NCBI GenBank assembly: GCA_965204095.1
Contig: OZ241991.1
Location: forward strand, 1,360,290-1,424,289
Length of the DNA: 64,000 bases
From: Bryobacterales bacterium
GTDB lineage: Bacteria; Acidobacteriota; Terriglobia; Bryobacterales; UBA6623
Direction of reading: 5' to 3'
Part shown: piece by piece, positions 3,611 through 63,591 of the stretch
How positions within the stretch are numbered: position 1 is the first letter of the stretch
Layout: each line of letters begins with the position of its first letter
Program-made: the position numbers and the translations under genes
Notes under the pieces: generated by a model
Database searches by the model: none
The model's input: the letters and a program-made list of their open reading frames with translations, nothing else
What the model was told of the DNA's origin: nothing

Positions 3611-3733
3611 GGACCCTCCTTATGTCGTGCTACCGTTTTCTAAGGTGTGCAAAGCAAGTCAACCGGCCACCTGACGCACGAATCGCCCGTCCCCTGTGGT
3701 GGGTGAGAACTGGTCCTCGTACCGCAACGCTAG

Positions 3734-3909
3734 CCTGCATTTCTCACCACGAGGCGAGGTGAAGTGCGTGAGAGGGCCGTCAGGACGAGGCGCGAGCCGC
3801 TTGGCGCGCGCAGGCGTACTTGACAGTACGTCGAGCACGGCAAGCAAGCGCAACGAAGTCCTGGCGGTCCTATCGCGTGCTTCGACCGTCGGGTGGTGAG
3901 AAATGCAGG
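3734..3909 (+). mobile_element. MITE copy 1 (subfamily A, 176 bp)
   Basis: Termini CCTGCATTTCTCACCAC ... GTGGTGAGAAATGCAGG. Flanking direct repeats CTAG (3730-3733) and CTAG (3910-3913). No coding capacity. Confidence 0.9.
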
Positions 3910-4663
3910 CTAGTGAATGTCTTTTACGTTGTGGATCTTCCGGGTTCTTGGCGGGCGCCTGCGTGCGAGCGCGCTGAAATCCCCATTTCCTCCCCCCGAA
4001 TGATTGCAGGTCGATCCTCGCCGTCAACGGTCCGCTTCGTCGCGTCGAGGGCGCGCCATTGACTGCTCCGGACCGACCGGAAACAACGAACTGGTGTGAG
4101 GGAAAAGGGATGAACCGACAGGCAGGTTGGTCACGGGTAGCGCGATCAAGCATGAACTGGCTTTTTGGTCGCCAGCACTCTTCAATCGCCCTTCGGAGTC
4201 CGCTCAGCACTGAGGCCTCCGCCACCCGCGATATTTCGGTCTAAGCTAACCGCACCATCAAATTATCGAAATGTCAAGTAGATATTTGAAATATTTTCAA
4301 CAGACAACAAAAACGTCCCTTTGGGGGCGGCAGGAAGGGGGGAACCTCTCGTTGCGATTCGAGTCCTGCTCACTCCTGGCGGGGGTTTTCCGCCCTTCCC
4401 ATCCGGCCCGTCATTTCCACCGCCCGTTTTCAACTGGTCGCCGCGCGTTGTTCCGACAGCAGCGGCCGGCGCCAGGATGATTTGACGACGGCTTGTACGG
4501 CCGTGGAGCGATTCGTGGTTGCGGCTTGGGACGCGCTTTCAGCGGCGGCGGGAGGGTCTCGTCAAAGGGCGCCGTCGATCGCTGGAAACGCACCCGCAAC
4601 TCGCCGCCCCGGGTGTGCTCAAGGGTCTCCCTTGTCAGAAGGATGCTCTTGCCGATGCTCTAA

Positions 4664-4840
4664 CCTGCATTTCTCACCACGCGGCGAGGCGAAGTGCGTG
4701 AGAGGGCCGTCAGGACGAGGCGCGCGCCGCTTGGCGCGCGCAGGCGTACTTGAACCGTACGTTGAGCACGGCAAGCAAGCGCAACGAAGTCATGGCGGTC
4801 GTATCGCGTGCTTCGACCGTCGGGTGGTGAGAAATGCAGG
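4664..4840 (+). mobile_element. MITE copy 2 (subfamily A, 177 bp)
   Basis: Same terminal IRs. Perfect TSD CTAA (4660-4663) / CTAA (4841-4844). Ends 41 nt before the isochorismatase-family start codon. Confidence 0.9.
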
Positions 4841-4885
4841 CTAAGCCGGGGCTGCATCGCTCCCCTCATCAGATACAATCGGGCC

Positions 4886-5473
4886 ATGGCGTTCACGAAT
4901 GGACTCATCCATCCCGAGAACACGGCCTTGGTTGTCGTCGACTTGCAGGAGAAGCTGACGCCTGCCATTAGCGGGATCAACGGTGTGCTCGCCAACACGA
5001 AAAAGCTTCTTCACTTGGCGAAGATCCTTACTCTGAAGACCTTGGTTACGACGCAATACCGGAAGGGGCTTGGCGATACGGTATCGGAGATCGCCCAGCT
5101 TTTCGAGACAGAACCCATTGACAAGATCTGCTTCGGCTGCCTTGGAGACGATATCTTCGAGCGGCAACTGAACGCTGCTTTGCCGAACGGAGGAGCAGTC
5201 GTTCTTTGCGGCATCGAAGCACACATTTGTGTCAACCAGACTGCTCTCGGGGCGCTTGCCAAAGGCTACGGCGTACACGTTGTGGCGGACGCCGTCGGCT
5301 CGCGTACGGCAGAGAACCGGCAGATCGGCATCCAACGCATGCGCGACGCGGGCGCGGTGGTCTCCTCCACCGAGATGGCGATTTACGAGTTGTTGGGCGA
5401 CAGCCGCCGTCCTGAGTTCAAACAGATGCTGCCTTATCTCAAGCAGGCCGCGGGAAAGCCGGACGGGCACTAG
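4886..5473 (+). CDS. isochorismatase-family (cysteine) hydrolase
   Basis: MAFTNGLIHPENTALVVVDLQEKL...VVLCGIEAHICVNQTAL matches the family's D/K/C catalytic pattern. The track ORF starts at 4808 inside MITE copy 2, so I moved the start to the first ATG after the MITE (4886). The stop TAG (5471-5473) lies in the TSD of MITE copy 3. Confidence 0.85.
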   Translation: MAFTNGLIHPENTALVVVDLQEKLTPAISGINGVLANTKKLLHLAKILTLKTLVTTQYRKGLGDTVSEIAQLFETEPIDKICFGCLGDDIFERQLNAALPNGGAVVLCGIEAHICVNQTALGALAKGYGVHVVADAVGSRTAENRQIGIQRMRDAGAVVSSTEMAIYELLGDSRRPEFKQMLPYLKQAAGKPDGH

Positions 5474-5650
5474 CCTGCATTTCTCACCACGTGGCGAGGC
5501 GAAGTGCGTGAGAGGGCCGTCAGGATGAGGCGCGCGCCGCTTGGCGCGCGCAGGCATACTTGAACAGTACGTTGAGCACGGCAAGCAAGCGCAACGAAGT
5601 CCTGGCGGTCGTATGGCGTGCTTCGGCCGTCGGGTGGTGAGAAATGCAGG
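5474..5650 (+). mobile_element. MITE copy 3 (subfamily A, 177 bp)
   Basis: Same terminal IRs. Flanks CTAG (5470-5473) / TTAG (5651-5654). Confidence 0.9.
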
Positions 5651-5739
5651 TTAGTAGGCGTCGCTTCAACGGTCTCGCAAGGTTGACGGCGCAAGCAGGT
5701 GGATGGCCTCGGTTCTATTCGCCCCCCCCCCCCGACCTG

Positions 5740-5768
5740 TTGACAAACATGTGTCCGTGATTTAGTAA
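5740..5768 (+). promoter_or_regulatory. candidate sigma70-type promoter of the IclR-family gene
   Basis: Perfect TTGACA (5740-5745), a 17-nt spacer, then TAGTAA (5763-5768). The ATG at 5780 would leave a leader of only a few nt. A C12 homopolymer (5722-5733) lies just upstream. Pattern match only. Confidence 0.4.
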
Positions 5769-5779
5769 TAGCGTTCAGA

Positions 5780-6556
5780 ATGTCGGACACGGAAAGGCCT
5801 GACAAGCCGCACGCCACCATGGTTGCCCGCGCTCTCCGGATCATGGAGACACTGGACAGTTCCCGGCGCGGCTTGAACATTTCCGAGATCAGCCGCAAGC
5901 TGGGCATCCCCAAGAGCAGCACGCACGTCATCATTCTCACTCTCGAAGAGCTTGACTATGTGAACAAGGCGCCGTCGACGCGCCGCTACTCGCTCGGATT
6001 GAAGGCCTACGGACTCGGCCAAAGGATGATGAAGTCGTTCTCGATGGCCGAGGTCGCGCGGCCGGTGATGCAGAAACTCGTGGATAGCACCGACCTGACG
6101 AGCCACCTCGCTGTGCTCGACAAAGGTCAGGCAGTATGCATTCAAAAGGTCGAGCCGCCCAGTTTGATCCAGTTCGACACCAGGATCGGTCGCAGAATGG
6201 ATCTTCATTGCAGCGGCGTCGGAAAGGTGATTCTCGCCCACAGCGGGGACGATCTGCTGCAGGATTTCCTATCCAAGAAGGTCTTTATTCGGCACACGCG
6301 CAAGACGATCAGTTCGTCGCAAGCCCTGGAGCGGGAAACCATGAAGATTCGCCGGCAGCGATACGCGCTGGATGATCAGGAAGAGGAGTTGGAAGTCCGC
6401 TGTGTGGCCGTTCCGGTCTTCAACCGGCTTCACGAGTTCTCCGGAGCCCTCAGCGTTACCGGAACGACAGGTCAAATCCCAATCAGCCGCATCAAGTCTC
6501 TCGTCAAGGTTCTCAAGCAAAGCTCCTCCGATATCTTCGACGTTCCCATCCTCTGA
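5780..6556 (+). CDS. IclR-family transcriptional regulator
   Basis: 258 aa. N-terminal winged HTH (ALRIMETLDSSRRGLNISEISRKLGIPKSSTHVIILTLEELDYV) and a C-terminal IclR effector-domain-like region. The stop TGA (6554-6556) directly abuts MITE copy 4. Confidence 0.9.
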   Translation: MSDTERPDKPHATMVARALRIMETLDSSRRGLNISEISRKLGIPKSSTHVIILTLEELDYVNKAPSTRRYSLGLKAYGLGQRMMKSFSMAEVARPVMQKLVDSTDLTSHLAVLDKGQAVCIQKVEPPSLIQFDTRIGRRMDLHCSGVGKVILAHSGDDLLQDFLSKKVFIRHTRKTISSSQALERETMKIRRQRYALDDQEEELEVRCVAVPVFNRLHEFSGALSVTGTTGQIPISRIKSLVKVLKQSSSDIFDVPIL

Positions 6557-6829
6557 CCTGTATTTCTCACCACGTGGCGAGGCGAAGTGCGTGAGAGGGC
6601 CGTCAGGACGAGGTGCAACCCGGGCGGAGGAAAAAGGCGCGCGCAGGCGTACTTGCCGAATCGCTTCCTTCACCCCTCGGGTCAAGAAACACGGCCTTTA
6701 GCGTTCACAGGCCGTCGGACATTTCTTCTGGAGCGAACCAAGCCTCACCGAATGCTTTTCACGAGACACGAATCACGAATCACGGCCTTTTATCGCGTGC
6801 TTCAACCGTCGGGTGGTGAGAAAGGCAGG
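6557..6829 (+). mobile_element. MITE copy 4 (chimeric, 273 bp)
   Basis: Both MITE termini are present (CCTGTATTTCTCACCAC ... GTGGTGAGAAAGGCAGG), with flanks CTGA / CTAA. The central ~50 bp is replaced by ~135 bp (about 6654-6790) that includes a heptad block CACGAGA CACGAAT CACGAAT CACGGCC (6760-6787), the same block type as in the 13-14 kb array. Confidence 0.85.
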
Positions 6830-6932
6830 CTAAGCGGCACCAGGTCGTTCGGAGTGCCGGACGAGCCTTCGCGGACAGCGGCTTGGGCGCTGTTTCGTGA
6901 GTTCCACGCCGTGCCGGCTACAGAGCTGTCCT

Positions 6933-9155
6933 TCAGAAATGGACCGGCTGAGCGAGAGCGCCGTTGCCTGCCGAATCGAACGCGGCGAAACGCACCCACT
7001 TCTTCCCTTTGGTGCGAATCGGTATCCGGAAGCGCTTGCTGGAGTGCGGAGCCAGATCAGTGGTCGAGATGATCCGGCGGCTGACCGTCTTGCCGTCACC
7101 CCAAACGACTTCCACGAAGTCGAGGGGGAACGTCCATTCGACTTGGGCCGAAATGGTTCTGTCGTCGCCGGACCCTTCCACTGCGTATTCACTAATGAGG
7201 ACCTCGCCGCTCGTCACGAAGAAGTCACCGGCGCGCATGGCGCTCGTGATCGGGCTCCAGTCCTCATTGAAACGCGGCAGCGGGTCGACCTTGATGTAGT
7301 TGACGAGCAGCTCGCCATAGATCTCGTCTTCGGGAAACTTCATGTAGGTGTCACCCTCGGATACGAGATATTTCGGGCCGGACCAGTTATTCATGTCATC
7401 GAGCACGCCGATGCAGCGGGACTCGCAGATACGCTTCTCGGAGAGGTCGACGGGCAGTGACTGGTAAGCGCCGCCGAGGTAGCGGTCGCTATTGAAGTGA
7501 GCCGTCTCGCGGATGGCGTCGGGATAGGGCGTCGAACCCTTCGTGCGCGGATGAGCTTGCCAGATGAGTCCCTGCTCGAGCTCGAGGAGTTCCAGCATAT
7601 CCTTCGCGGAACCGGTGCGATATACCTTGCCGAACTTCGGATGGTCCTCGACGAACGGCTGACCGGCTAGCCGGACTTTTGTCCAATACACGGGCTTGGG
7701 GAAGACAGCCGTGTAATGTCCACCGATATGCGCGTTCGGCTCTTCACCGGGCATGAGCAGAAATTCGCGGTCGGAGTGGCGGGCGCAGGCCTTGAAATAA
7801 CTATCGAGATCGTTGTAGCGAATGTCGCCGGAGTCGTCCGGGGAGCCATCTCCGTGGAAATCGCTCATCATCGCGATGTTGATGCCGAGAGCGCGGAACG
7901 CGGGCAACCACGGCGGCCGAAAATCAAGGGTTCCCGCGTCCAGTAACTGCTCGGCAAAATGCGTGTGGAAGTGGCTGACCGCCACTTGATAACCCTTGAG
8001 GGGCTTGAATTGGTCGTTGTGGGTAAAAGCCAGCACGGCTCGCTGCGTCTCCTCCCAGGCGGCAGGGCTCAGATAGAAATAGGCCGCCATGCGCTGCCAG
8101 GTGCCCGGGGGGGCGTTGTACATGGCGAAGTTCCCGAGCGCGAAGCGCCTGGACTGGTTCAACCGCTTTCCCCATAGCTCATCCGAGACGCCATAGGGCC
8201 GGAACATCTCTTCGTAGTCGCCATGGCGAACACCGGCCGAGAACGATCCCTCGTCGTCCATGCGGTACCAGACGTAGCCGAGGTTCAACTCGATCTCGCG
8301 CGCCCAGAAAAACTTGTGCGACGGAGGGAAGAATGCAAGGGTGCCGTTGGGTGTTTCGATGAGACCGAGGCGATTGCGCGCACGCAATGCCACTGGACCT
8401 TCGTTGACCGTGCCGCCAAACTCGTACTTCTGCCAGGCGCGCGACACATCCCGCCAGCGGACGCGGCTGCCCTCCGTTGAAAAGCCCTTCAGCCCGGCGC
8501 GGTATTTGTAGGCAACGGATGGCTCGTCTGTTTTTGCGATCACTTCTTGACGGATGAGATTCGTGCCGCGGTAGACGGTGTACTGCAGGCGCCCCGAGAA
8601 GATGCCCATCGAAAGGCCGGGAAATGAAACCTCGATGCGCGCGCCGTCCGTTTTTACCTTGCAACTCGTAGCGTTGTAAGTGGCGGGGGAGCGGCGAATT
8701 TCATCTTCACGTCGGGGCAGGTCGGTGTTGACGCCTTCGAGCCCCGGAACGCGGAGAGGCGCATCCCAAAAGACTTTCCACTTTTCTTTCTCGATCACAG
8801 CGGGAGTGATTGGCTGCCCCAGGTCCCGGATAGGGTTCAGTTGCTGGTGCGAGATACGACGCACACCGCTGGTAACAAGAAAATCCGGCTTGAGGTCGGT
8901 AGCGACGGGCTTCCAGGACCAATCGGGACCGCGAACGGCCATCTGACGAATGACAGGCTGTGTGCCATCAATCCCGAAGTCGAGCCGCAGGCTGGAGCCG
9001 CGCTCGCCCGTCCAGTGGACAGTAAGCGTATCGTTGTCGAGTTTTGCCTGAAGCCCTTGCTGCTCCTGATAGGAGCTCATGTCGCAGTTGAGGACGGCGC
9101 TCCCGGAGCTCAGTGGAAGAAGGAAGAGAACGAGGGTGACAAGTGTTTGGCGCAT
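6933..9155 (-). CDS. secreted hypothetical protein (C-terminal half has metal-hydrolase-like His clusters, e.g. VSHFHTHF, MSDFHGDG)
   Basis: Long ORF. The track start (9404) lies inside MITE copy 5, so I re-set it to MRQTLVTLVLFLLPLSSGSA (ATG at 9155), which looks like a signal peptide. The function is not recognised; the His motifs are only suggestive. Confidence 0.7.
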   Translation of the reverse strand: MRQTLVTLVLFLLPLSSGSAVLNCDMSSYQEQQGLQAKLDNDTLTVHWTGERGSSLRLDFGIDGTQPVIRQMAVRGPDWSWKPVATDLKPDFLVTSGVRRISHQQLNPIRDLGQPITPAVIEKEKWKVFWDAPLRVPGLEGVNTDLPRREDEIRRSPATYNATSCKVKTDGARIEVSFPGLSMGIFSGRLQYTVYRGTNLIRQEVIAKTDEPSVAYKYRAGLKGFSTEGSRVRWRDVSRAWQKYEFGGTVNEGPVALRARNRLGLIETPNGTLAFFPPSHKFFWAREIELNLGYVWYRMDDEGSFSAGVRHGDYEEMFRPYGVSDELWGKRLNQSRRFALGNFAMYNAPPGTWQRMAAYFYLSPAAWEETQRAVLAFTHNDQFKPLKGYQVAVSHFHTHFAEQLLDAGTLDFRPPWLPAFRALGINIAMMSDFHGDGSPDDSGDIRYNDLDSYFKACARHSDREFLLMPGEEPNAHIGGHYTAVFPKPVYWTKVRLAGQPFVEDHPKFGKVYRTGSAKDMLELLELEQGLIWQAHPRTKGSTPYPDAIRETAHFNSDRYLGGAYQSLPVDLSEKRICESRCIGVLDDMNNWSGPKYLVSEGDTYMKFPEDEIYGELLVNYIKVDPLPRFNEDWSPITSAMRAGDFFVTSGEVLISEYAVEGSGDDRTISAQVEWTFPLDFVEVVWGDGKTVSRRIISTTDLAPHSSKRFRIPIRTKGKKWVRFAAFDSAGNGALAQPVHF

Positions 9156-9293
9156 GGCGGTTCGGAGCCCGGCGAGGTGCCGGCTTACCCGGTTTAGCTT
9201 GTGGCAATAGGATAGAACGAAAAAGACGGAACCTGCTTTGCGCTCCCGAACTGCCCGACGGTTCTGTCGGCATCTCAGCAAACGCGATATTAA

Positions 9294-9470
9294 CCTGCAT
9301 TTCTCACCACGCGGCGAGGCGAAGTGCGTGAGAGGGCCGTCAGGACGAGGCGCGAGCCGCTTGGCGCGCGCAGGCGTACTTGAACCGTACGTTGAGCACG
9401 GCAAGCAAGCGCAACGAAGTCCTGGCGCTCGTATCGTGTGCTTCGACCGTCGGGTGGTGAGAAATGCAGG
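9294..9470 (+). mobile_element. MITE copy 5 (subfamily A, 177 bp)
   Basis: Same terminal IRs. Perfect TSD TTAA (9290-9293) / TTAA (9471-9474). Confidence 0.9.
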
Positions 9471-9568
9471 TTAAATGCGGACGCGTTGTTTGGGCGAAGC
9501 CGGCAGATCCGGTCGAGAACCTTGGGGGAATAACAGGACCAGGAGGGAAGAAGAGGGGAGCGCCACTC

Positions 9569-12585: not shown

Positions 12586-12825
12586 CAAGAGTCGGAGGAG
12601 AAACGCCGGGGTTCAGGCAGGAAGCGGATGTTGTGGATTCGCCCGCCGTGTTCGAGGGCTCAGTATAGCAATCGAGGTCAGATTGCCCCGGATGTGGCGT
12701 CTTGCTCCGGGGCCGGTCAGCCTTTACGGGCAGGTCGACAAGTCTGTGAAAGCACATGACAGGAGTGACTTGACGGTCCGTGGTGAAATCCCGTGTAGCA
12801 CCGGCAGCGGGGCTCTTGCCATTAG

Positions 12826-13001
12826 CCTGCATTTCTCACCACGCGGCTAGGCGAAGTGCGTGAGAGGGCCGTCAGGACGAGGCGCGAGCCGCTTGGCGCG
12901 CGCAGGCGTACTTGACAGTACGTTGAGCACGGCAAGCAAGCGCAACGAAGTCCTGGCGGTCGTACCGCGTGCTTCGACCGCCGGGTGGTGAGAAATGCAG
13001 G
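12826..13001 (+). mobile_element. MITE copy 6 (subfamily A, 176 bp)
   Basis: Same terminal IRs. Flanks TTAG (12822-12825) / CTAG (13002-13005). Confidence 0.9.
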
Positions 13002-13005
13002 CTAG

Positions 13006-31415: not shown

Positions 31416-32240
31416 TCAATTCGTCATGGCTGAAACCTGTTCCGGCATGGTGGGAAGGGCTTCGGGCAAGGGTTTGCGCGGCAACTTCTCCTCTCGGTTG
31501 GCGGTGTGGTAGACGAAGGAGGCGATGACGACCACGGCTTGCATTAGGTCACCGGGTTGGGCGCGATCGTAGGCATCCATGTTGGAGTGGTGGGTCCGGG
31601 TTTCGTATTCGACGGGATCCTGGATGAACTGAAAACCCGGTGGTCCGACAGCATCGAACGAAAGATGGTCGGTGCCGCCGGTGCCGGGACTCCAACCGAG
31701 GGGAACGCCGATCAACATCTCATACTGCGGCTCGACCAGATGAACTGAGAAATAGCTTCGCGGCCAGCCCTGACCGAACGGCCCCCAGCGTTCAAGCTTG
31801 ACGTTTGCAGCGCCCCATTCTTCAAGCCGTGAATCGGCCCACCTGGCGGATGCGTTGAACCCGGGTGAGTTGGTGATGCGAGGTCCTTAGCCTGTATTTC
31901 TCACCACGTGGCGAGATGAAGTGCGTGAGAGGGCCGTCAGGACGAGGCGCGAGCCGCTTGGCGCGCGCAGGCGTACTTGACGGTACGTTGAGCACGGCAA
32001 GCAAGCGCAACGAAGTCCTGGCGGTCGTATGGCGTGCTTCAGCCGTCGGGTGGTGAGACATGCAGGTTAGACTTCGACGAGATGGAAGAGGTAGTCCATC
32101 ACCTCGGTGTGGTGGAAGACCTCCTGCTTGATGCGATGGATGACCTCGCGGTCGACAGCGTCGTTCGCCCGGAGGACGGTAGACGCCATGAAAACCACGG
32201 TGATGCCGAGAGACGATACGATGCGGGGCATGCCGATCAT
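31416..32240 (-). pseudogene. M28-family peptidase gene remnant, split by MITE copy 7 and carrying a large internal deletion
   Basis: My translation gives 32240-32071: MIGMPRIVSSLGITVVFMASTVLRANDAVDREVIHRIKQEVFHHTEVMDYLFHLVEV, then TAA in the TSD. After the MITE (31886 downward) the same frame continues: [41 protein letters not shown]...[45 protein letters not shown]... N- and C-terminal M28 blocks are joined with the ~250-300-aa catalytic core missing. Confidence 0.65.
31891..32066 (+). mobile_element. MITE copy 7 (subfamily A, 176 bp) inside the M28 pseudogene
   Basis: Termini CCTGTATTTCTCACCAC ... GTGGTGAGACATGCAGG. Perfect TSD TTAG (31887-31890) / TTAG (32067-32070). Confidence 0.9.
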
Positions 32241-43442: not shown

Positions 43443-43648
43443 CCTGCATTTCTCACCACCCGAGGGTCGAAGCACACGATACGACCGCCAGGACTTCGTT
43501 GCGCTTGCTTGCCGTGCTCAACGTACTGTTCAAGTACGCCTGCGCGCGCCAAGCGGCTCGCGCCTTTTTCCTCCGCCCGGCTTGCGCCTAGTCCTGACCC
43601 GACGGCCCTCTCACCCACTTCGCCTCGCCGCGTGGTGAAAAATGCAGG
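43443..43648 (-). mobile_element. MITE copy 8 (subfamily B, 206 bp)
   Basis: Inverted relative to copy 1. TSD CTAG (43439-43442) / CTAG (43649-43652). Carries the ~24-nt B insert ...TTTTTCCTCCGCCCGGCTTGCGCCTAG... Confidence 0.9.
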
Positions 43649-48305: not shown

Positions 48306-48505
48306 CCTGCATTTCTCACCACATGACGGCCGAAGCACGCGATACGACCGCCATGACTTCGTTGCGCTTGCTTGCCGTGCTCAACGTACTGTTCAAGTAC
48401 GCCTGCGCGCGCCAAGCGGCTCGCGCCTTTTCCTCCGCCCGGCTTGCGCCTAGTCCTGACGGCCCTCGCACGCACTTCGCCTCGCCACGTGGTGAGAAAT
48501 GCAGG
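48306..48505 (-). mobile_element. MITE copy 9 (subfamily B, 200 bp)
   Basis: Flanks CTCG (48302-48305) / CTAG (48506-48509). It fills most of the divergent intergenic region between 48286 and 48655. Confidence 0.9.
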
Positions 48506-55190: not shown

Positions 55191-55375
55191 ACCGTGGAAG
55201 CCAACCGTTGATTCGACCTGTTTCGAACGGACCGAACAGAGCCGGAAGAGCCTTGATTCAGCAAACTCTTCCGTACACAGTGCTCATTGGGAGCGGTGCT
55301 CTCAGCCAAACCACCAACAGACCTTGTTTCCGGCTTTGCCGAGCGGCCCCGGCAAGGAGGTTCAGCGGCTTGTCG

Positions 55376-55696: not shown

Positions 55697-55894
55697 CCTG
55701 CATTTCTCACCACCCGACGGTCGAAGCACGCGATACGATCGCCATGACTTCGCTTCTCCTTCGCGACGCTTGCTTGCCGTGCTCAACATACTGTTCAAGT
55801 ACGCCTGCGCGCGCCTTTTTCCTCCGCCCGGCTTGCGCCTAGTCCTGACGGCCCTCTCACGCACTTCGCCTCGCTAGGTGGTGAGAAATGCAGG
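55697..55894 (-). mobile_element. MITE copy 10 (subfamily B variant, 198 bp)
   Basis: Flanks CTAG (55693-55696) / CTAA (55895-55898). Each flank supplies the stop codon of one of two convergent genes. It lacks the AAGCGGCTCGCGCC segment, as does copy 4. Confidence 0.9.
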
Positions 55895-56623: not shown

Positions 56624-56638
56624 GGCGGCCTATTCTAA

Positions 56639-56815
56639 CCTGCATTTCTCACCACCCGACGGTCGAAGCACACGATACGACCGCCAGGACTTCGTTGCGC
56701 TTGCTTGCCGTGCTCAACGTACTGTTCAAGTACGCCTGCGCGCGCCAAGCGGCTCGCGCCTCGTCCTGACGGCCCTCTCACGCACTTCGCCTCGCCACGT
56801 GGTGAGACATGCAGG
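56639..56815 (-). mobile_element. MITE copy 11 (subfamily A, 177 bp)
   Basis: Perfect TSD CTAA (56635-56638) / CTAA (56816-56819). Only 11 nt separate the TSD from the LamG start codon. Confidence 0.9.
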
Positions 56816-56869
56816 CTAACCGTTGACGATCTCGATGATCTGAGGTGTTTGTGACAACCCCGCAGCTTT

Positions 56870-58009: not shown

Positions 58010-58054
58010 CAACCGGGCAACAGCCACTCCTTGAGCGGTCGGATGCTCCGGCTC

Positions 58055-58184
58055 ACTCTTCTCCTCACCATGCGAGACAAGGAGCCTGACAAGGCCGTCA
58101 GGACAAAGCGAGAGCGGCTTTGCGCGTGAAGGCGCGCCTGATAGCAGATCGAGCACGGCAAGCAAGCGCAACGAAGTCATGACG
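58055..58184 (+). mobile_element. decayed, truncated MITE relic
   Basis: ...CTCACCATGCGAGACAAGG..GGCCGTCAGGAC..GAGCACGGCAAGCAAGCGCAACGAAGTCATGACG aligns to the left two-thirds of the MITE consensus at roughly 75 percent identity. Both termini are missing. Confidence 0.6.
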
Positions 58185-58449
58185 TTAGTGCCAGAGAGGT
58201 CGGTGATTCCTGATTAGCGACCCTTTACCCCTCCCCTTCAGAAAACGCTGGTCACTGGAAACTGCCTACTAATGTCAAATAGCCTTACGGCGCGCTTCGA
58301 CCATCAACGAAGGGGAAGCAGGATAGTCTCGATCTTCGAGAACAAATCATTGCGGGGGCGGAGCCGACGAGTACGGACAGAACCTCACGAAACCGTCCTA
58401 TAGACGGCCGCGCCGCCGTTGCGTTTCATCCTGGTCGCGCTGGCCGAAT

Positions 58450-60468
58450 TCATGCCCGACGACGGTTGGGTAACCGCGATTCCGGATCCCAGATGATCTC
58501 GCACTCAGGAAGCACGGCCTTGAGCCGCTCGTGACCCTCCTCGGTAATGAGCGTGTGATACACATTGAGAAGCTCAAGCCGCTTAAACCGCCCCAACAGC
58601 CGCACGCCACGATTGGTTACATAGGTATTATCGAGGTTCAGGACACGAAGTTCCGCGAGCGCTTCCAGATGGCACAGCCCGTCATCGGTGACATCCGTGT
58701 GCTCGAGATTCAAGTGCTTCAACCGGGTCAACTCCCCGACGATTTCCAGGCCAGCGTCCGTGACGCGGGTACGCAGGAGGTCCAGTCCTTCCAACTTCGT
58801 CAGAGCGCTGAGGTGGGTTAGTCCGTCATCGGTGAACCGCCCGTACTTCAGAGACAAGCTTCGCAGGTTCGTCAGCGACTTCAGGCTAGCCATCCCCTCG
58901 TCACCGATGTCGACGCTTGTCAAGTCCAGTCGTTCAAGACCTTTCAGCTTCTCCAGATGACGCATGCCCTGGTCGGTAACATCGGTGTATGCGAGACCCA
59001 GGTCTTCAAGCCAGGTCACCTGGCTCAACAACGCCAGCCCGTGGTCATTGATCGGCGAGCCGTTCAACGTCAGGCTGCGCAGCGCGGTCGAATGCAATAG
59101 ATGGGAAAGCCCCTCTCCCTCGACGTAGGTGTTCCGCAGCGACAGGTTTTGCAGGTTCGACAAACCCGCGAGATGACGCAGCCCCTGATCGGAAACGGTC
59201 GTGTTGTCGAGACGCAACTCGCGCAAGCCCCGCAACCCGGCCACGTACTGAAGGCCAAGGTCACCCACCTCCGTCGCTCCCAGATCGAGTTTCCGTAAAT
59301 TCGGAAGATTCTTCAGATGAGCCAACTCCGTGTCGCTCATGGCCGTCGAGAGCAGTGAGAGCGAAACCAGTCTGCCTGCTTGAAGGGAGGCTTCCCCGCC
59401 CCACTTCCGAACCCAAGCAGCCACCGACTCTCCGTCGCCGGCCACGGGAGGTTCCGGATTCCGACTGAGTCGCGGCGGCCGGAGTGAGACGTCAAGGAAG
59501 ACGATTCGGGCGCTCGGCAACGCCGCCCGTAGCCGCTCTACGCCCGCTTGCGTAACCCGCGTGTAGCGCAAATCGATTTCGCGAAGGCCGGTCAACCCGC
59601 GCAGCTTCGCCAGACCCGCATTGCTGATCTTCGTTCGATAAAGATTCAACTCCTCGATCGCCGTAAGTCCCTGCAAGTAGTCGAGCCCGACATCGGTCAG
59701 TGCCGTCCCCATCAGATTGAGCTTGCGCAAACCCCTGAGGCTGCGCAGATTCATGAGTCCCGTGTCGCTGAGATTCGTCCCATGCAGGTCGAGCTCGATC
59801 AATCCCGAGAGGCCAGCCAGCGCGGCTGCTCCTTCATCCGTAATGAATGTGTCGCCCATTCGTAGTCGTCTGAGCGTCTTCAGATCGGCGATCGCGCTCA
59901 GCCCCTCGTCATCGAGCTGAGAAAGGGTGACGTCCAATGACTCCAGCCGCCGAAAGGGCGCCAAAGCATGACCCTTCACTGCCGTCTGCCGAAGAACCAA
60001 CTCCCGCAAGTCGGTCAGCTCGCCGATTGCTTCCAGGCCCTCATCCCTGAACCGGATGTTGTCCAGAAAGTGGTAGCTGAAAGTCAGCTTTTGCAGCGTA
60101 TGGATGCCGGAAAGATGTCCCAATTCGCGGCTGAGTTGCTTGCCGCCGTCGGCATTTCTGTTCCAGATGGGCCCGGGAAGATGGAGCGCCTTCAGCCGCG
60201 ACAGCCCTTTGAGGCGCGCCAAGTCCTCCGGAACGACATTCGTTCCAACGAGATCGATTCCGGTCAACCAGACATCGGACACCGGGAGGCTGTCGGTGTT
60301 CCGAACCCACCCTGACGAGCTTTCCATCTCGACCCCGCCACCCATTGCCAGAGCCCACTCGGCGACGCGCCGGTCAACCTCGGCCGCACCGGAAACACTC
60401 GACGAAAGCAAGGTTGCCAACACTGGAACGAGTAGCCGGCATGCGCGATCTGCGAGAAAAACCGTCAC
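58450..60468 (-). CDS. leucine-rich repeat (RNI-like, ~24-aa repeats) secreted protein
   Basis: More than 20 tandem L..L..L.L..T.(V/I)(T/S)D.GL..L repeats. Signal peptide. GTG start. Confidence 0.85.
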   Translation of the reverse strand: MTVFLADRACRLLVPVLATLLSSSVSGAAEVDRRVAEWALAMGGGVEMESSSGWVRNTDSLPVSDVWLTGIDLVGTNVVPEDLARLKGLSRLKALHLPGPIWNRNADGGKQLSRELGHLSGIHTLQKLTFSYHFLDNIRFRDEGLEAIGELTDLRELVLRQTAVKGHALAPFRRLESLDVTLSQLDDEGLSAIADLKTLRRLRMGDTFITDEGAAALAGLSGLIELDLHGTNLSDTGLMNLRSLRGLRKLNLMGTALTDVGLDYLQGLTAIEELNLYRTKISNAGLAKLRGLTGLREIDLRYTRVTQAGVERLRAALPSARIVFLDVSLRPPRLSRNPEPPVAGDGESVAAWVRKWGGEASLQAGRLVSLSLLSTAMSDTELAHLKNLPNLRKLDLGATEVGDLGLQYVAGLRGLRELRLDNTTVSDQGLRHLAGLSNLQNLSLRNTYVEGEGLSHLLHSTALRSLTLNGSPINDHGLALLSQVTWLEDLGLAYTDVTDQGMRHLEKLKGLERLDLTSVDIGDEGMASLKSLTNLRSLSLKYGRFTDDGLTHLSALTKLEGLDLLRTRVTDAGLEIVGELTRLKHLNLEHTDVTDDGLCHLEALAELRVLNLDNTYVTNRGVRLLGRFKRLELLNVYHTLITEEGHERLKAVLPECEIIWDPESRLPNRRRA

Positions 60469-60516
60469 CAGAAACCTGCCGGAATTGTATCAGGCCACCC
60501 CAGTTCACCCTCCTAG

Positions 60517-60664
60517 CCTGCATTTCTCACCACCCGACGGTCGCAGCACACGATACGACCGCCAGGACTTCGTTGCGCTTGCTTGCCGTGCTCAACGTAC
60601 TGTCAAGTACGCCTGCGCGCGCCAAGCGGCTCGCGCCTTTTTCCTCCGCCCGGCTTGCGCCTAG
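60517..60664 (-). mobile_element. MITE copy 12, left part (interrupted by the IS)
   Basis: Starts with CCTGCATTTCTCACCAC after TSD CTAG (60513-60516). Colinear with copies 8-10 up to ...GGCTTGCGCCTAG (60664). Confidence 0.9.
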
Positions 60665-62398
60665 CCCGGAAATCTCACCAGGGGGTAGGAAAAGGGCTGC
60701 CTGGTGTGGCATAAAACATTTATGTCCAAAACGTTAGCGCCACAAGCCGAAAGCAGCCCTATGACAACAGAGTGTACTCAATGCAGCTTCACCTTCGCCA
60801 AGCATTTTCGGCGCCAGGTGAGCGCCCGCTTCGACGGCGGGGTGATCAGTTCCGACGGCGGCGCGCTGCTGTTGCGCGAGGTGGACCAGCGCATCAACCT
60901 GCTACCGCGCTTGGCGGCCTGCTTCGAGGATGGCCGCGATTCGCGGCGCATCGAACACCGGGTGGGGGAGTTGGTCTCGCAGCGGGTCTACGGACTGGCG
61001 CTGGGATACGAAGACCTCAACGATCACGACGAGTTGCGCCGGGATCCGCTGGTGGCGCTGCTGGTGGGCAAGAGCGACGTGGGCGGGCAGCAGCGCCGCC
61101 GCGAGCGTGACCGCGGCCAGCCGTTGGCGGGCAAGAGCACGTTGCAGCGACTGGAACGAACGAGCGACGGGCTGGACCGCTATAAGAAGATCCGCTGCGA
61201 CAGCGCAGCGATCGACCGCCTGTTGGTGGACGTGTTTGTGGAAGCGCAGCAGCAGGAGCCGGCCGAGATCATTCTCGATATCGACGCCACCGACACCCCT
61301 TTGCATGGGCAACAGGAGGGGCGTTTCTTTCACGGTTACTACCGACACTACTGTTACTTGCCGCTGTACATCTTCAGCGGCGAGCACGTATTGTGCGCGC
61401 GGCAGCGAGTGGCGAATCAGGACGCGGCGGAGGGCAGCGTGGCGGAACTGAAGAGGATCGTGGCGCAGATCCGGGGAGAGTGGCCGGAGGTGAGGATCAT
61501 CGTGCGCGGCGACTCCGGGTTTTGTCGGGACGAGTTGATGGACTGGTGCGAGCAGAACGGAGTGGAGTACGTGTTGGGGCTGGCGCGCAACGAGCGGCTG
61601 CGGTCGCTGATCGACGAGGCCCTCGACGAGGCGGCAAGGCAGCAGCAGCAGACGGGCCGGCCGGCGCGGGTCTTTACGGAGTTTGAGTACCAGACGCTTG
61701 AGAGTTGGAGCCGGGCGCGGCGGGTGGTGGGGAAGGCGGAGCAACTCGTGGGCAAGGAGAATCCGCGCTACGTGGTGACGTCACTGGATGCCGAGAGTTG
61801 GCCGCCGCAACGGTTGTACGAACAACTCTACTGCGAGCGAGGCGAAGCGGAGAACCGCATCAAGGAGCAGTTGAGTCTGTTCGCGGATCGCATGAGCAGC
61901 GAGACGCTGCGGGCCAATCAGTTGCGGCTGCATCTGTCGTCGCTGGCGTATGTGTTGCTGGTGGGGCTGCGGCGGCTGGGGCTGGAGGGCACGCAGTGGG
62001 CGCGGGCCCAGACGGAGACGATCCGGCGGGGGTTGTTGAAGATCGGGGCGCTGGTGAAGGTGAGCGTGCGGCGGGTGCAGCTGTCGCTGGCCAGCGGCTA
62101 TCCCTATGAGGAGGCGTTCGCGGCGGTGTATCGGGCACTGCGTCCGCCGGGATGCGCAACGGTTTGAGAACACCGAGTGAGCCCAAAAACAGCGTTCCTG
62201 GGGCGCTCTGCCGGGGCCGTAGGGCTAAGTGGGTCTGCTGTCGGCAACAACCCCAAAAACGGACGTTGGCGGGTCGCCGGGGGCGGTAGAAAACGCCCCG
62301 TAGCGGCCCTCGTCCCTCCTCCCCGTGAGGATTCCGAGCTTCAGACCCTATTGTGGCCCCTCTCAACCCTTCGCAATGCCGCTGGTGAGAAATGCGGG
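60665..62398 (+). mobile_element. IS1380-family insertion sequence (1,734 bp)
   Basis: Ends CCCGGAAATCTCACCAGG... and ...CTGGTGAGAAATGCGGG (24/35 IR match). Flanked by CTAG (60661-60664) and CTAG (62399-62402). Single transposase ORF. Confidence 0.88.
60722..62167 (+). CDS. IS1380-family DDE transposase
   Basis: FDGGVISSDGGALLLREVDQRINLLPRLAACF...GLALGYEDLNDHDELRRDPL...ILDIDATDTPLHGQQEG..FHGYY... is an N-terminal pattern I recognise from IS1380-type (DDE_Tnp_1-like) transposases. 481 aa from the ATG at 60722. Confidence 0.88.
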   Translation: MSKTLAPQAESSPMTTECTQCSFTFAKHFRRQVSARFDGGVISSDGGALLLREVDQRINLLPRLAACFEDGRDSRRIEHRVGELVSQRVYGLALGYEDLNDHDELRRDPLVALLVGKSDVGGQQRRRERDRGQPLAGKSTLQRLERTSDGLDRYKKIRCDSAAIDRLLVDVFVEAQQQEPAEIILDIDATDTPLHGQQEGRFFHGYYRHYCYLPLYIFSGEHVLCARQRVANQDAAEGSVAELKRIVAQIRGEWPEVRIIVRGDSGFCRDELMDWCEQNGVEYVLGLARNERLRSLIDEALDEAARQQQQTGRPARVFTEFEYQTLESWSRARRVVGKAEQLVGKENPRYVVTSLDAESWPPQRLYEQLYCERGEAENRIKEQLSLFADRMSSETLRANQLRLHLSSLAYVLLVGLRRLGLEGTQWARAQTETIRRGLLKIGALVKVSVRRVQLSLASGYPYEEAFAAVYRALRPPGCATV

Positions 62399-62454
62399 CT
62401 AGTCCTGACGGCCCTCTCACGCACTTCGCCTCACCGCGTGGTGAGACATGCAGG
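62399..62454 (-). mobile_element. MITE copy 12, right part
   Basis: CTAGTCCTGACGGCCCTCTCACGCACTTCGCCTCACCGCGTGGTGAGACATGCAGG, then TSD CTAG (62455-62458). It continues exactly where the left part stops. Confidence 0.9.
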
Positions 62455-63591
62455 CTAGCGCATCATCTCGTCCCAGGTCACAGTGCGACCGGTGTCCATC
62501 GCCATTCGCCCCATGATGGCGGTGAGCGTGCTTTCCGCTCCGCGAATGCCGACGTTTTCGGTCTTGCCCTGGACGATACGCTTCACGAACGCCTCCATCG
62601 AGTCGAGATCGATGTGACGCGGGGCGTCCTGGTGAAGCACGTCGCCACGGTCGCGATAGTGCTTCCAGTAGCCGCGGGCCGTCTCGACCATTGATTCAGA
62701 GCCCCAAACACGTTCATGAACCTCGCGGTAGAAGAGGGGCATGATGTGAGACCCTACCAGTGTCGCTCGGATGTTGTCGGGATATTCAAAAACGACGGAG
62801 ATGTGATCTCCCATATCGCCCGCTTTCTTGATCGTTCGTCCGCCTCCGGCTACCGCCTTGATCGGGTGCCTGTCGCCAAGAGACCAGTTGAGAACATCGA
62901 TCGAGTGACAATAGGTTTCGACGACGATGTCCCCGTAGAGGTCGCGCCACCACTTCCATTCACGAACTTTGTCGTGGAGTGTCACGGGGCGTTCCCGCGG
63001 GGGCTCTTTGCCGCTGACGGTGCCTTTCAGAAAGTGGGCTTCAGCCTGGTGGATCTTGCCGAGCCCGCCCGAGTCGATCACTTTGCGGGCTTGCTTATAC
63101 GTCCAGCCGTAGCGCTGCTGGAACCCGAACGTGACGTTGAGTCCGGGTTTGGCCGAGTCGGAGGCCTTCATGACCCGCTTGCAGGCCGCGACATCGACGC
63201 CGGCGGGCTTCTCCACGTAGACGTGCTTGCCGGCTCTGACGGCCGCCTCCAAATGTTCGGCGTGCAGAAACACCGGCGTTGCGATGATGACCGCGTCGAT
63301 TTCGTCGCTCGCGAGCATCTCGTTGTAGTCCAGGTAGGTTTTCGGGTTCTCGATCGGGATACGCTGCTTGGCTTTTTCGATCTGCTCCTCGAAGAGGTCG
63401 CACAACGCGACGAGCCTCGCCCCCGGAACCTTGACCAAGCGGCTCGACAGACGGCTTCCACGTCCGCCGGAGCCAAGGAGACCGACCCGAACCTCCGAGT
63501 TCGCGGCGCTTCCGCGAACCGCCGCAAAGGGAACCATCGCCGCTGCTCTCACAAGATTGCGCCTACTGACATGTGCTTTAGTGTTTTTCAT
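62455..63591 (-). CDS. Gfo/Idh/MocA-family oxidoreductase with TAT signal
   Basis: MKNTKAHVSRRNLVRAAAMVPFAAVRGSAANSEVRVGLLGSGGRGSRL... followed by family-typical ...IDAVIIATPVFLHAEH...GKHVYVEKP. The stop codon (rc TAG, 62455-62457) lies in the TSD of MITE copy 12. Confidence 0.88.
   Translation of the reverse strand: MKNTKAHVSRRNLVRAAAMVPFAAVRGSAANSEVRVGLLGSGGRGSRLSSRLVKVPGARLVALCDLFEEQIEKAKQRIPIENPKTYLDYNEMLASDEIDAVIIATPVFLHAEHLEAAVRAGKHVYVEKPAGVDVAACKRVMKASDSAKPGLNVTFGFQQRYGWTYKQARKVIDSGGLGKIHQAEAHFLKGTVSGKEPPRERPVTLHDKVREWKWWRDLYGDIVVETYCHSIDVLNWSLGDRHPIKAVAGGGRTIKKAGDMGDHISVVFEYPDNIRATLVGSHIMPLFYREVHERVWGSESMVETARGYWKHYRDRGDVLHQDAPRHIDLDSMEAFVKRIVQGKTENVGIRGAESTLTAIMGRMAMDTGRTVTWDEMMR

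Follow-up and report, generated by a model that had tools for sequence, protein, structure and literature searches.

The recurrent non-coding element in the window, a 64 kb stretch of DNA from a Bryobacterales bacterium (Acidobacteriota), is very probably a non-autonomous MITE whose terminal inverted repeats (TIRs) are those of a clade of IS1380-family insertion sequences (ISs) that target CTAG/YTAR. It is presumably mobilised in trans by their DDE transposase, and we infer that the transposase encoded within the window is the mobiliser. The element is a newly characterised, very active bacterial MITE of a DDE IS, a known kind.

Copy number and anatomy

Twelve copies and one relic are present in the window (Table 1), all 12 copies at the coordinates given in the preliminary description. 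The 17-mer terminal repeat CCTGCATTTCTCACCAC has 25 matches at ≤2 mismatches in the window against 0.01 expected, and a profile made from the copies recovered 12/12 at E≤1e-38 as well as the relic. The relic had been placed at 58055–58184 and is indeed present, but it spans ~58054–58322 and is oriented opposite to its neighbours. Elements are typically 176–206 bp long (176–273 bp including variant copy 4), with 90–98 % identity among the 11 canonical copies and ~79 % for copy 4. The very high load reported initially is borne out, as the density is ~1 per 5 kb and ~4 % of the window is MITE sequence. The 17 bp TIRs are perfect at 17/24 termini and carry one mismatch at 7/24, and so are not perfect in every copy as had been claimed. 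At least 10 species represented by Bryobacterales MAGs carry the same MITE family, internal homology included.

Table 1. Features of the window discussed in the text
Feature	Position	Strand	Details
MITE copy 1	3734..3909	+	176 bp; flanks CTAG/CTAG
MITE copy 2	4664..4840	+	177 bp; flanks CTAA/CTAA
MITE copy 3	5474..5650	+	177 bp; flanks CTAG/TTAG
MITE copy 4	6557..6829	+	273 bp; old variant, interior replaced; flanks CTGA/CTAA
MITE copy 5	9294..9470	+	177 bp; flanks TTAA/TTAA
MITE copy 6	12826..13001	+	176 bp; flanks TTAG/CTAG
MITE copy 7	31891..32066	+	176 bp; flanks TTAG/TTAG
MITE copy 8	43443..43648	-	206 bp; long form; flanks CTAG/CTAG
MITE copy 9	48306..48505	-	200 bp; long form; flanks CTCG/CTAG
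HHH_3 gene	55370-55696	+	stop from copy 10
MITE copy 10	55697..55894	-	198 bp; long form; flanks CTAG/CTAA
Laminin_G_3 gene	55895-56554	-	stop from copy 10
MITE copy 11	56639..56815	-	177 bp; flanks CTAA/CTAA
Decayed relic, same family	58054..58322	+	nhmmer E=5.5e-22; orientation opposite to neighbours
MITE copy 12, left part	60517..60664	-	long form; outer flank CTAG; ends in internal CTAG 60661-60664
CTAG duplications around nested IS	60661-60664 and 62399-62402
Complete IS1380-family IS	60665..62398	+	1,734 bp; inside MITE copy 12
Transposase gene	60722..62167	+	481 aa from ATG 60722
MITE copy 12, right part	62403..62454	-	outer flank CTAG 62455-62458

Internal hairpins had been noted earlier; the fold exists, but it involves the whole element, which folds into a single long, imperfect hairpin; the folding energy is -108 kcal/mol for one strand (z=-8.4) and -84.8 kcal/mol for the opposite strand (z=-5.4). 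Such stability, together with the location of many copies directly after stop codons, where they would be co-transcribed, raises the alternative that the repeats do not spread by transposition but are primarily structures selected by the host, either REP/BIME-like or 3′-UTR RNA hairpins for mRNA stability or termination. However, the TIRs and 4-bp duplications, the presence or absence of copies at orthologous sites and the ends shared with a transposase-encoding IS make this very unlikely. The copies have no coding capacity, a search inside them for promoter-like or terminator-like motifs (including a U-tract) found none, no Rfam family corresponds to them, and MITE orientation does not track the strand of flanking genes. 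The copies may have secondary effects on transcripts.

Target site and placement relative to genes

Perfect 4-bp repeats flank copies 1, 2, 5, 7, 8, 11 and 12, as listed previously. In a logo of the flanks of 71 elements, Y-T-A-R occupies positions -4 to -1 and +1 to +4, and composition is random beyond; conservation is strongest at the central TA, and CTAG is the commonest flank. YTAR is present on both sides in 48/71 elements, and the flanks are non-identical in 39/71. Non-palindromic flank pairs are direct in nine cases and inverted in none, and in no pair does the identity reach 5 bp. Thus, the logo, the 9 : 0 ratio and the lack of 5-bp identity indicate a true 4-bp target-site duplication, as the preliminary description had proposed, and not a TIR extension or a TA duplication.

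The conserved TA and the frequency of CTAG could also suggest a MITE of the IS630/Tc1-mariner type, for which CTAG would be the insertion site but TA the only part duplicated, with the outer Y and R belonging to the element or reflecting target preference. This is scarcely credible. Besides the consistently direct flank pairs, the bases beside the ends vary among 97–98 % identical copies, between G and A on the left and between C and T on the right, and are therefore not part of the element, and no IS630-type transposase with matching ends was found. The reading is contradicted by length-exact empty sites (see below), as filled and empty sites differ by the element plus 4 bp, not plus 2 bp.

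For the IS1380-type MITE, transposase would bind the CCYGCATTTCTCACCA ends and cut the target, a YTAR tetramer that is usually CTAG, with a 4-bp stagger; repair would then copy the tetramer to give the duplication. A plain ‘duplicate target, then drift’ model does not predict that intact YTAR is found in 0/7 alignable empty alleles.

All window copies are located intergenically, and there is zero gap between four copies and five stop codons of Pfam-supported genes. The left flank of copy 3 holds the TAG stop of an isochorismatase gene (4886–5473), the left flank of copy 4 the TGA stop of an IclR gene (5780–6556), and the outer CTAG of copy 12 (62455–62458) the stop of a GFO/IDH/MocA gene (62455–63537, minus strand). 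Copy 10 occupies the entire space between two convergent genes, both of which take their stop codons from it. Because YTAR is rare in the host genome, of 59 % G+C, and is a stop codon when in-frame, tolerated targets are found mostly between genes and at TAG or TAA stops. Insertion at such a stop regenerates it through the duplication, so the gene stays intact.

A nested IS1380-family IS shares the MITE ends

The copy first described as ‘split’ (60517–62454) is real, but the complete IS nested within it had not been recognised: it is a long-form MITE interrupted at an internal CTAG (60661–60664), the target of the IS. The uninterrupted target, GCGCCTAGTCC, is visible in long-form copies 8–10, as is the empty-site equivalent, GCGCCTAGTCCTGAC. 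The IS termini are CCCGGAAATCTCACCAGG (IRL) and CCCGCATTTCTCACCAGC (IRR, reverse complement). The longest transposase ORF, of 487 aa, starts at GTG 60704; the 468-aa product that starts at ATG 60761 is 100 % identical to P0002. Pfam PF13701 identifies the transposase at E=2e-147, and the NCBIfam model NF033539 ‘IS1380 family transposase’ gives it 391.5 bits, above the score cutoff of 180 bits. At least three further transposase copies are present in the same genome, and CTAG/CTAG flanks are seen in 7/7 IS copies (window, L201, L202, two in L203, L207 and L208).

IRR is identical to the MITE TIR at 15/17 bases, and IRL differs at ~5/17 positions. At one end the MITE–IS similarity reaches ~45 nt (score 23 vs 14.2 ± 3.4 in shuffles), and at the other it ends after the TIR. 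Since the similarity stops at these points, the MITE did not arise simply by recent deletion from the window IS copy; a closer partner IS may be located elsewhere in the genome. The element had not been recognised as a described family. This stands in so far as an Rfam search returned zero matches even at E≤1, annotated plasmids gave no match and a literature search found no published IS1380-derived MITE, but the autonomous partner inside copy 12 places it in the known IS1380 family.

An IS5-family element was also weighed as the source and mobiliser of the MITE, as IS5 has been reported with CTAG tetranucleotide duplications (PMC10379815) and a close relative, L207, has an IS5/IS427-type element (DUF4096 + DDE_Tnp_1). 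However, the ends of the latter (...TCTGTTAACACTAA...) are unrelated to the MITE TIR, and every IS found with matching ends, like the single IS in the window, belongs to the IS1380 family. An IS5-family parent is contradicted by this TIR comparison and is extremely unlikely.

IS1380-family ISs with the same termini and CTAG duplication are located on Pseudomonas putida plasmid pKF715A and Rhizobium leguminosarum plasmid pRle248a. Likewise, 1.7-kb ISs in Acidobacteriota, Planctomycetaceae and Ca. Versatilivorator MAGs have these termini and CTAG duplication, and the 71 tabulated MITE-sized elements bounded by the same TIR come from many phyla. Shared termini with a CTAG/YTAR 4-bp duplication are a general rule for this IS1380 clade.

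Insertion polymorphism between relatives

The MITE family is currently active. A lack of insertion polymorphism had been named beforehand as a refuting result. Orthologous sites in four relatives, 93–96 % identical, do show polymorphism: copies 2, 3, 5 and 7 are absent from such sites, and private MITE copies are present in L196, L203, L205 and L206. Length-exact empty sites are seen for copy 2 in L196 (CTGC), copy 7 in L205 (GTAG) and an L203-private copy (window 58398–58401). In L196, the site of copy 3 is GTAG, which holds the identical stop codon, and its length differs by 3 bp; copy 5 is missing together with 18 bp of its flank, and ACGCG microhomologies border the missing stretch. Copies 1 and 6 are within segments missing from L196 (3.5 kb, 393–3915, and 1.36 kb, 12815–14174, respectively). 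Only copies 4, 8, 9, 10 and 11 are common to relatives: copy 4 has the same site and flanks in L196, copy 8 is common to the window, L205 and L206, and copy 9 to the window, L203 and L205, while L203 has the same copy 10, with a nested IS, and a 269-bp variant of copy 11. The relic is also found in L203. Because most insertion sites differ between strains this similar, the MITE is still mobile.

Orientation

Copies 1–7 lie in one orientation and copies 8–12 in the other. Such a strong regional bias is unexpected for an element whose 17-bp ends are identical. As an addition to IS1380-type transposition, replication-coupled insertion could consistently place the G-rich strand of the MITE on the leading strand, with either a replication terminus or the breakpoint of an old inversion at ~42 kb; we advance this tentatively, as possible rather than probable. 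In the window orientation, 9/9 copies left of ~32–43 kb are ‘+’ and 8/8 to the right are ‘-’, a count that takes in five strain-private, hence independent, insertions (34/131072 orderings by hand calculation, p~3e-4). The single flip occurs at the GC-skew sign change, ~42 kb. No multi-copy locus is of mixed orientation, 13/13 copies across 600 kb of OZ242366.1 have the same orientation, and three copies in L207 are co-oriented with the tuf-rpoB operon and positive skew. Copies from opposite blocks are as alike (98 %) as those within a block, so local hopping is not the cause. Other IS families are known to show an orientation bias linked to replication (PMC3971601). However, the local skew of 8-kb loci matches orientation in only 17/36 copies, and L201 (rpsO-pnp, skew +0.02) and 5/6 OZ242366.1 loci disagree with the replication reading. 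Additionally, the pattern on contig ctg717612c needs very unequal replichores (~1.8 vs 3.8 Mb), a search for a dif-like site found none, and IS orientation relative to MITE orientation is not fixed.

Comparison with known systems

The nested IS shares with the IS1380 family (e.g. IS1380, IS1247, ISEcp1) its transposase (NF033539, PF13701), size of 1,734 bp, CC-initiated TIRs and 4-bp duplication. ISEcp1-type members have 5-bp AT-rich duplications, not YTAR. The pKF715A and pRle248a copies have CCCGCATTTCTCAC termini and CTAG/CTAG flanks, as here. IS1247 is listed in the IS1380 family at 1,672 bp with a 5 bp DR (PMC3281130). Unlike IS1380 ISs, the MITE is without a transposase, is 176–273 bp and is ~10 times more abundant than the IS. 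IS5 has a similar 4-bp CTAG-type duplication (PMC10379815), but its TIRs and transposase family are unrelated.

Correia (Neisseria), RUP, Nezha and QMITEs (Coxiella) are like the present MITE in size, TIRs, hairpin, lack of coding, high copy number and intergenic habit, but have no sequence similarity to it; the present MITE has an IS1380 parent, a 4-bp YTAR target, a density of ~1 per 5 kb and an orientation uniform over large blocks. The Correia target is TA. Bacterial MITEs in general are small, non-coding, high-copy, intergenic elements with TIRs and a hairpin, often co-transcribed with neighbours and mobilised in trans by an IS transposase (PMC10969869).

In prokaryotes, the IS1380 transposases are regarded as remote relatives of the eukaryotic piggyBac superfamily (PMC10140906). 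Integration of piggyBac is specific to TTAA and gives a 4-bp duplication (PMC7351741). YTAR includes TTAA and is palindrome-like, and the element ends start with CC. However, the only domain hits of the window transposase are PF13701 and PF01609, without one to the piggyBac domain, and CTAG is preferred over TTAA here.

The replication-polarised elements Tn7/TnsE, IS200/IS605 with their PATEs, and REP/BIMEs rely on targeting by a TnsE clamp or on single-strand HUH chemistry and give no 4-bp duplications, whereas the partner here is a DDE transposase and the replication link is only proposed. These systems are like the present MITE in chromosome-scale orientation uniformity with a flip at the skew change (PMC3971601).

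Anatomy and membership of the MITE family

Twelve MITE copies, numbered here from left to right (copies 1–7 forward, copies 8–12 reverse), lie within the 64 kb of the window, together with one decayed relic. With ≤2 mismatches allowed, the 17-mer CCTGCATTTCTCACCAC has 25 matches where 0.01 would be expected by chance, and these matches pair into the same 12 elements that the preliminary description listed, with flanking tetramers exactly as it gave them. Its 17 bp terminal inverted repeats (TIRs) are likewise present, although not perfect in every copy as had been stated: 17 of the 24 termini are perfect and 7 carry one mismatch. A profile HMM finds 12/12 copies and also the relic, for which the earlier extent of 58055–58184 proved too short.

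The elements are 176–273 bp long. Once oriented, 11 canonical copies are 90–98 % identical, and copy 4 (273 bp), an old variant whose interior has been replaced, is ~79 % identical to the others. Two size classes are apparent, a short form of 176–177 bp and a long form of 198–206 bp, the latter having an extra ~24 bp segment that holds an internal CTAG. The entire MITE folds as a single long imperfect hairpin (−108 kcal/mol, z=−8.4, for one strand and −84.8 kcal/mol, z=−5.4, for the other), with weaker pairing beyond the TIR extending along the whole element. Small size, lack of a transposase, TIRs, a target-site duplication (TSD) of fixed length, dispersed copies with presence/absence polymorphism and ends common to an autonomous element are the general marks of a MITE, and all are found here.

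The copies in the window are without a Pfam-supported ORF and are placed between Pfam-supported genes. Rfam 15 gave no match at the gathering score in the window and none at E≤1 for one MITE copy. No promoter-like or terminator-like motif was found inside the copies, and a role as an outward promoter or intrinsic terminator is rejected on that ground. The family, recognized by internal homology, is present in at least 10 Bryobacterales MAG species; annotated plasmids gave no match to it, and a literature search found no paper on IS1380-derived MITEs. We regard it as a new, unusually dense and active family of a known kind of element.

Features of the window and syntenic stretches of related genomes (window positions unless stated)
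Feature	Position (strand)	Size or identity	Remarks
L196, syntenic relative (TARA scaffold)	1–392 and 3916–16585	94–97 % identity	
L203, syntenic relative (ERZ21830300)	45899–62402	95–96 % identity	
L205, syntenic relative (ERZ24894577)	27256–48615	93–95 % identity	
L206, syntenic relative (ERZ25072178)	35680–46960	94–95 % identity	
Indel with copy 1	393–3915	3.5 kb	Unrelated 136 bp in L196
TonB-dependent receptor gene	608–3541		Inside the indel with copy 1
Indel with copy 6	12815–14174	1.36 kb	Absent from L196
ORFs at the indel with copy 6	13091–13474, 13471–14355		No Pfam match
Extra segment in L205	~34631; L205 (reverse complement) 7202–7434	233 bp	Between convergent HisRS and M20-peptidase genes
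Second MITE-like element	41284–41554	~271 bp	Flanks CTGA 41280–41283, TTGA 41555–41558
Third small element	43331–43438	108 bp	Flanks CTAG 43327–43330, CTAG 43439–43442
MITE relic	58054–58322		Decayed
Leucine-rich-repeat protein gene	58450–60423 (−)	657 aa	Eukaryote-like type (LRR_4/6/8)
MITE copy 12 with nested IS	60517–62454 (−)		Long form
Nested IS1380-family IS	60665–62398 (+)	1,734 bp	Flanks CTAG/CTAG
IS at the copy 12 site in L203	L203 16770–18492		Without MITE

An IS1380-family element with the same ends

Copy 12 had been taken for a split MITE. This was a misreading, as a complete insertion sequence (IS) sits inside it at the internal CTAG. Copies 8–10 carry this target uninterrupted (GCGCCTAGTCC) and thus show the empty site of the IS within the window itself. 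The nested IS has a single ORF with a match to Pfam PF13701 (E=2e-147), and its transposase scores 391.5 bits against the NCBIfam equivalog NF033539 ‘IS1380 family transposase’ (cutoff 180). Members of the IS1380 family are ~1.55–2.0 kb long; they have one ORF, TIRs that begin with CC and direct repeats of 4–5 bp. In its length, its one ORF, its CCCGG.../CCCGC... ends and its 4 bp CTAG direct repeat the nested IS agrees with every criterion of the family that could be tested, the values of IS1247 being used for length and direct repeat (PMC3281130).

The Bryobacterales IS is flanked by CTAG/CTAG in 7/7 readable copies. Its right end, read inward, is CCCGCATTTCTCACCAG, which equals the MITE TIR at 15 of 17 bases, and the similarity runs to ~45 nt (score 23 vs 14.2 ± 3.4 in shuffles); at its left end the IS has only the TIR core in common with the opposite end of the MITE. 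The MITE therefore shares the ends of the IS but did not arise recently by deletion within this copy, and an origin by simple internal deletion of the window IS, with similarity over only ~45 nt at one end, is rejected. A transposase 100 % identical and several 95–97 % identical are recorded on one contig of 6,301,730 bp; the host, a Bryobacterales (Acidobacteriota) genome, therefore carries several copies of the IS. The nested IS is probably the autonomous partner of the MITE.

Some 60–78 nt in from the right end of the IS lies the subterminal motif CTCGGAATCCTCACGGGG. It is similar to the repeat at the left terminus, CCCGGAAATCTCACCAGGGG, and may be an internal transposase-binding site. A fixed relative orientation of IS and MITE was suggested by four loci and is broken by L207, a locus from another genome. 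At the copy 12 site the relative L203 has an IS alone at the same genomic CTAG, where the window has MITE and IS. The two ISs are 88 % identical and the flanking DNA 96 % identical; the L203 synteny ends at this IS, breaking to its right. Either each genome's own IS variant inserted independently into the same hotspot or the IS copies have undergone concerted evolution.

Ends and target across the IS1380 clade

A scan for CCYGCATTTCTCACCA in one genome per species gave at least 115 loci from many phyla; copy numbers per genome are minima here, and repeat-rich places are over-represented among the loci. Full-length ISs are among them: inverted pairs of CCYGCATTTCTCACCA ~1.7 kb apart enclose IS1380-type transposases 53–58 % identical to that of the window, and the flanks outside the two ends are CTAG/CTAG (L040), CTAA/TTAA (L034) and CTAG/CTAG (L056). 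Likewise, annotated ‘IS1380 family transposase’ genes on the plasmids P. putida pKF715A and R. leguminosarum pRle248a, with 55–57 % identity to the window's, belong to elements whose ends are of the CCCGCATTTCTCAC type and whose flanks are CTAG/CTAG.

Among the matches listed, 71 MITE-sized elements of 127–447 bp are bounded by the same TIR; YTAR (CTAG, CTAA, TTAG or TTAA) is found on both sides in 48/71, identical 4-mers in 32/71, CTAG/CTAG in 19/71 and TTAA/TTAA in 4/71. The flank logo of these 71 listed matches reads Y-T-A-R with random composition outside, their non-palindromic flank pairs are direct in nine cases and inverted in none, and in 0/71 are the flanks identical over 5 bp. Logo, direct pairs and the lack of longer identity together therefore indicate a 4 bp TSD, which is what the preliminary description had proposed from the window alone and which length-exact empty sites in relatives bear out. 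The same flank statistics exclude the flank as an extension of the TIR. A 2 bp TA duplication, as in MITEs of the IS630/Tc1-mariner type, is rejected, the duplication being 4 bp by flank statistics and empty sites. Parentage by the IS5 family, which makes the same CTAG duplication (PMC10379815), is also rejected: the IS5/IS427-type element in L207 has ends unrelated to the MITE TIR. Such ends, together with duplication of YTAR, characterize this IS1380 clade in general.

Filled and empty sites in related genomes

The preliminary description had named a lack of insertion polymorphism among the findings that would refute it, and such polymorphism is evident: copies 2, 3, 5 and 7 are absent from relatives, and relatives have private copies. 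The comparison uses the four syntenic loci of the table. Names of several related MAGs suggest sponge or marine sources, and L196 is from a TARA sample. Metagenome contigs scanned with a 740 aa anchor gave only homologues 58–68 % identical, without synteny and without MITEs.

For copy 2 the window reads GCT-CTAA[MITE]CTAA-GCC and L196 reads GCT-CTGC-GCC, the length difference being exactly the MITE plus 4 bp. Copy 7 (TTAG[MITE]TTAG vs GTAG in L205) and a 201 bp MITE private to L203 (CCGTC-CTAG[MITE]CTAT-AGACGG vs CCGTC-CTAT-AGACGG in the window) are equally length-exact. The copy 3 site is empty in L196 as GTAG, the same stop codon, with a 3 bp length difference. Private copies at CTAG in L196 and L205 correspond to CGAG and CTCG in the window, and an old, decayed copy private to L206 corresponds to (G)TCAG. 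Copy 5 is missing from L196, and 18 bp of its flank are gone as well; this loss, bounded by ACGCG microhomologies, looks like a deletion. Copies 4, 8, 9, 10 and 11 are common to the window and relatives, with an IS nested in copy 10 in L203 only, and copies 1 and 6 fall inside larger indels. Turnover of the MITE is thus very high at ~5 % sequence divergence. TSDs, polymorphism and an orientation independent of gene strand rule out a non-mobile structured host element.

The right breakpoint of the indel that includes copy 1 lies 2 bp past the CTAG flank of the MITE, which suggests repeat-associated rearrangement. The indel that includes copy 6 is bounded by ~20 bp direct repeats, GGTCCGTGGTGAAATCCCG / CAGTCCGTAGTGAAATCCCG, resembling the TIR of a second MITE family. 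The L196 scaffold terminates in a MITE at both ends, as expected because the repeat breaks short-read assemblies.

Other small elements were seen in passing. The second MITE-like family (TIR ~CAGTYCGTGGTAAAGTC) is represented in the window by an element that L205 and L206 lack; both have only one CTAA at the site, which is the stop codon of the B12-binding-domain gene. Copies with 76–83 % identity occur in L196, beside the empty copy 3 site, and at three loci of OZ242366.1 (L028, L070 and L090). This family is thus mobile as well, and it too lands on a stop codon. The third element, AT-rich and with imperfect TIRs (GAGCCTGTCCTACAG / GAGTCTGTCTCACAG), is inserted exactly between copy 8 and its left flank and uses the same CTAG. 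The window has one copy of it, and L205 and L206 lack it. The extra segment of L205 has no match to the MITE profile.

Placement at gene ends and the state of empty alleles

All MITE copies are intergenic in a self-trained gene map of the window. Five stop codons adjoin four copies with a gap of zero, the flanking tetramer containing the stop in each case; the Pfam-supported genes concerned are those for isochorismatase, IclR, an HHH_3 protein, a Laminin_G_3 protein and a GFO/IDH/MocA oxidoreductase. Copy 10 exactly spans the gap between two convergent genes and gives both of their stops, a layout that recurs in the more distant relative L197. In L196, without copy 3, the isochorismatase gene has this same TAG as its stop; the duplication thus preserves the stop codon.

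YTAR is rare in the window: base composition predicts ~658 sites, but outside the MITEs there are 91, and 22 of these are MITE flanks. Among the NTAN tetramers the four that fit YTAR show the strongest depletion (O/E 0.52–0.76), and none of the 256 tetramers has a lower O/E than CTAG (0.52). Stop codons, rare Leu codons and codon usage suffice for this depletion, and selection against landing sites is not claimed.

Intact YTAR is found in 0/7 alignable empty alleles (CTGC, GTAG, GTAG, CGAG, CTAT, CTCG and TCAG), whereas unoccupied non-coding YTAR sites of the window are still YTAR in relatives in 5/6 comparisons (Fisher p~0.005, by hand). These conserved unoccupied sites fall in promoter, 5′-UTR or operon gaps. 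A plain insertion model does not explain empty alleles without YTAR. Possibly, permissive YTARs are filled about as fast as they arise, such that MITE polymorphism follows target polymorphism; unfilled targets may also be lost. Alternatively, a piggyBac-like reaction could carry donor-derived 4 nt flanks into near-YTAR sites, which fits the L203 case (CTAG/CTAT vs empty CTAT) but not copies 2 and 7. In the youngest copies (2, 5 and 11) the two flanks are identical, and most differences of CTAG to TTAG or CTAA are explained by GC-to-AT transitions; the classical duplication model is therefore adequate for the filled alleles.

Orientation of the copies

Left of ~32–43 kb, 9/9 copies are ‘+’ in window orientation (7 in the window and 2 in L196 only), and to the right 8/8 are ‘−’ (5 in the window plus the private copies in L203, L205 and L206), the sole opposite copy being the decayed relic. 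So ordered an arrangement is found in 34 of 131072 orderings (p~3e-4, hand calculation). The flip coincides with a change of sign in GC skew, which is positive up to ~42 kb and negative from there to 60 kb; convergent skew at ~42 kb resembles a terminus or an old inversion breakpoint. MITE orientation does not track the strand of flanking genes. Local hopping as the cause of the blocks is rejected, as copies 5 and 11, from opposite blocks, are 98 % identical. The plain insertion model gives no account of this pattern.

A link between orientation and replication would have precedent, replication-linked orientation bias being known in other IS families (PMC3971601). Among the matches listed, none of the multi-copy loci of other genomes is mixed; 13/13 copies across 600 kb of OZ242366.1 share one orientation, and at L207 three copies point the same way as the tuf-rpoB operon, in agreement with positive skew. 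However, the GC skew of 8 kb loci agrees with orientation in 17/36 copies, which is uninformative, L201 and most OZ242366.1 loci disagree, and five positions on ctg717612c would demand very unequal replichores. Nor was a dif site found as a marker of the terminus: a relaxed pattern gave 10 matches vs 8.7 expected, and the E. coli 28-mer consensus gave no site with ≥17/28 matches, where shuffles reach 17–18. We hold the link to replication only tentatively, at somewhat less than an even chance.

A wider reading, which we consider rather unlikely, joins the two patterns. The family would be orientation-fixed with respect to a polarity of the chromosome, most likely that of the replication fork (the G-rich strand, which folds better, being on the leading strand), and target-limited, with permissive YTARs filled soon after arising, or else subject to piggyBac-like carry-over of donor flanks. 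If true, a bacterial piggyBac relative would be an orientation-specific, near-saturating, tetranucleotide-directed transposon system.

Mobilization and comparison with known systems

The MITE is very probably a non-autonomous element mobilized in trans by a co-resident IS1380-clade DDE transposase that makes a 4 bp staggered cut at YTAR. We infer both the mobilizing enzyme and its chemistry: the DDE transposase of the co-resident IS would move the MITE in trans, the staggered cut would be made at YTAR and surviving insertions would be filtered to intergenic and stop-codon sites. MITE and IS would then form a concrete non-autonomous/autonomous pair for the IS1380 family, bacterial relatives of piggyBac. 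The ends of the clade (CCYGCATTTCTCACCA) and its target (YTAR, mostly CTAG, with 4 bp duplication) are defined across several phyla, which aids annotation of Acidobacteriota, Planctomycetota and other environmental genomes, where such repeats break contigs. A stop-codon target steers a selfish element to gene ends without damage to genes, and turnover is high enough for the MITE to serve as a strain-level marker. Should orientation polarity and YTAR-less empty alleles both hold genome-wide, the family would be a natural system for work on the reading of chromosome polarity by a DDE transposase and on the limit that target availability sets to the spread of a mobile element.

The IS1380-clade element is not itself a member of piggyBac, because no piggyBac domain is detected in its transposase; hmmscan gives only PF13701 and PF01609 at E≤0.001. 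However, the IS1380 transposases are seen as remote relatives of piggyBac in prokaryotes (PMC10140906); piggyBac itself integrates at TTAA with a 4 bp duplication (PMC7351741), and the YTAR rule of the IS1380 clade is a close functional parallel.
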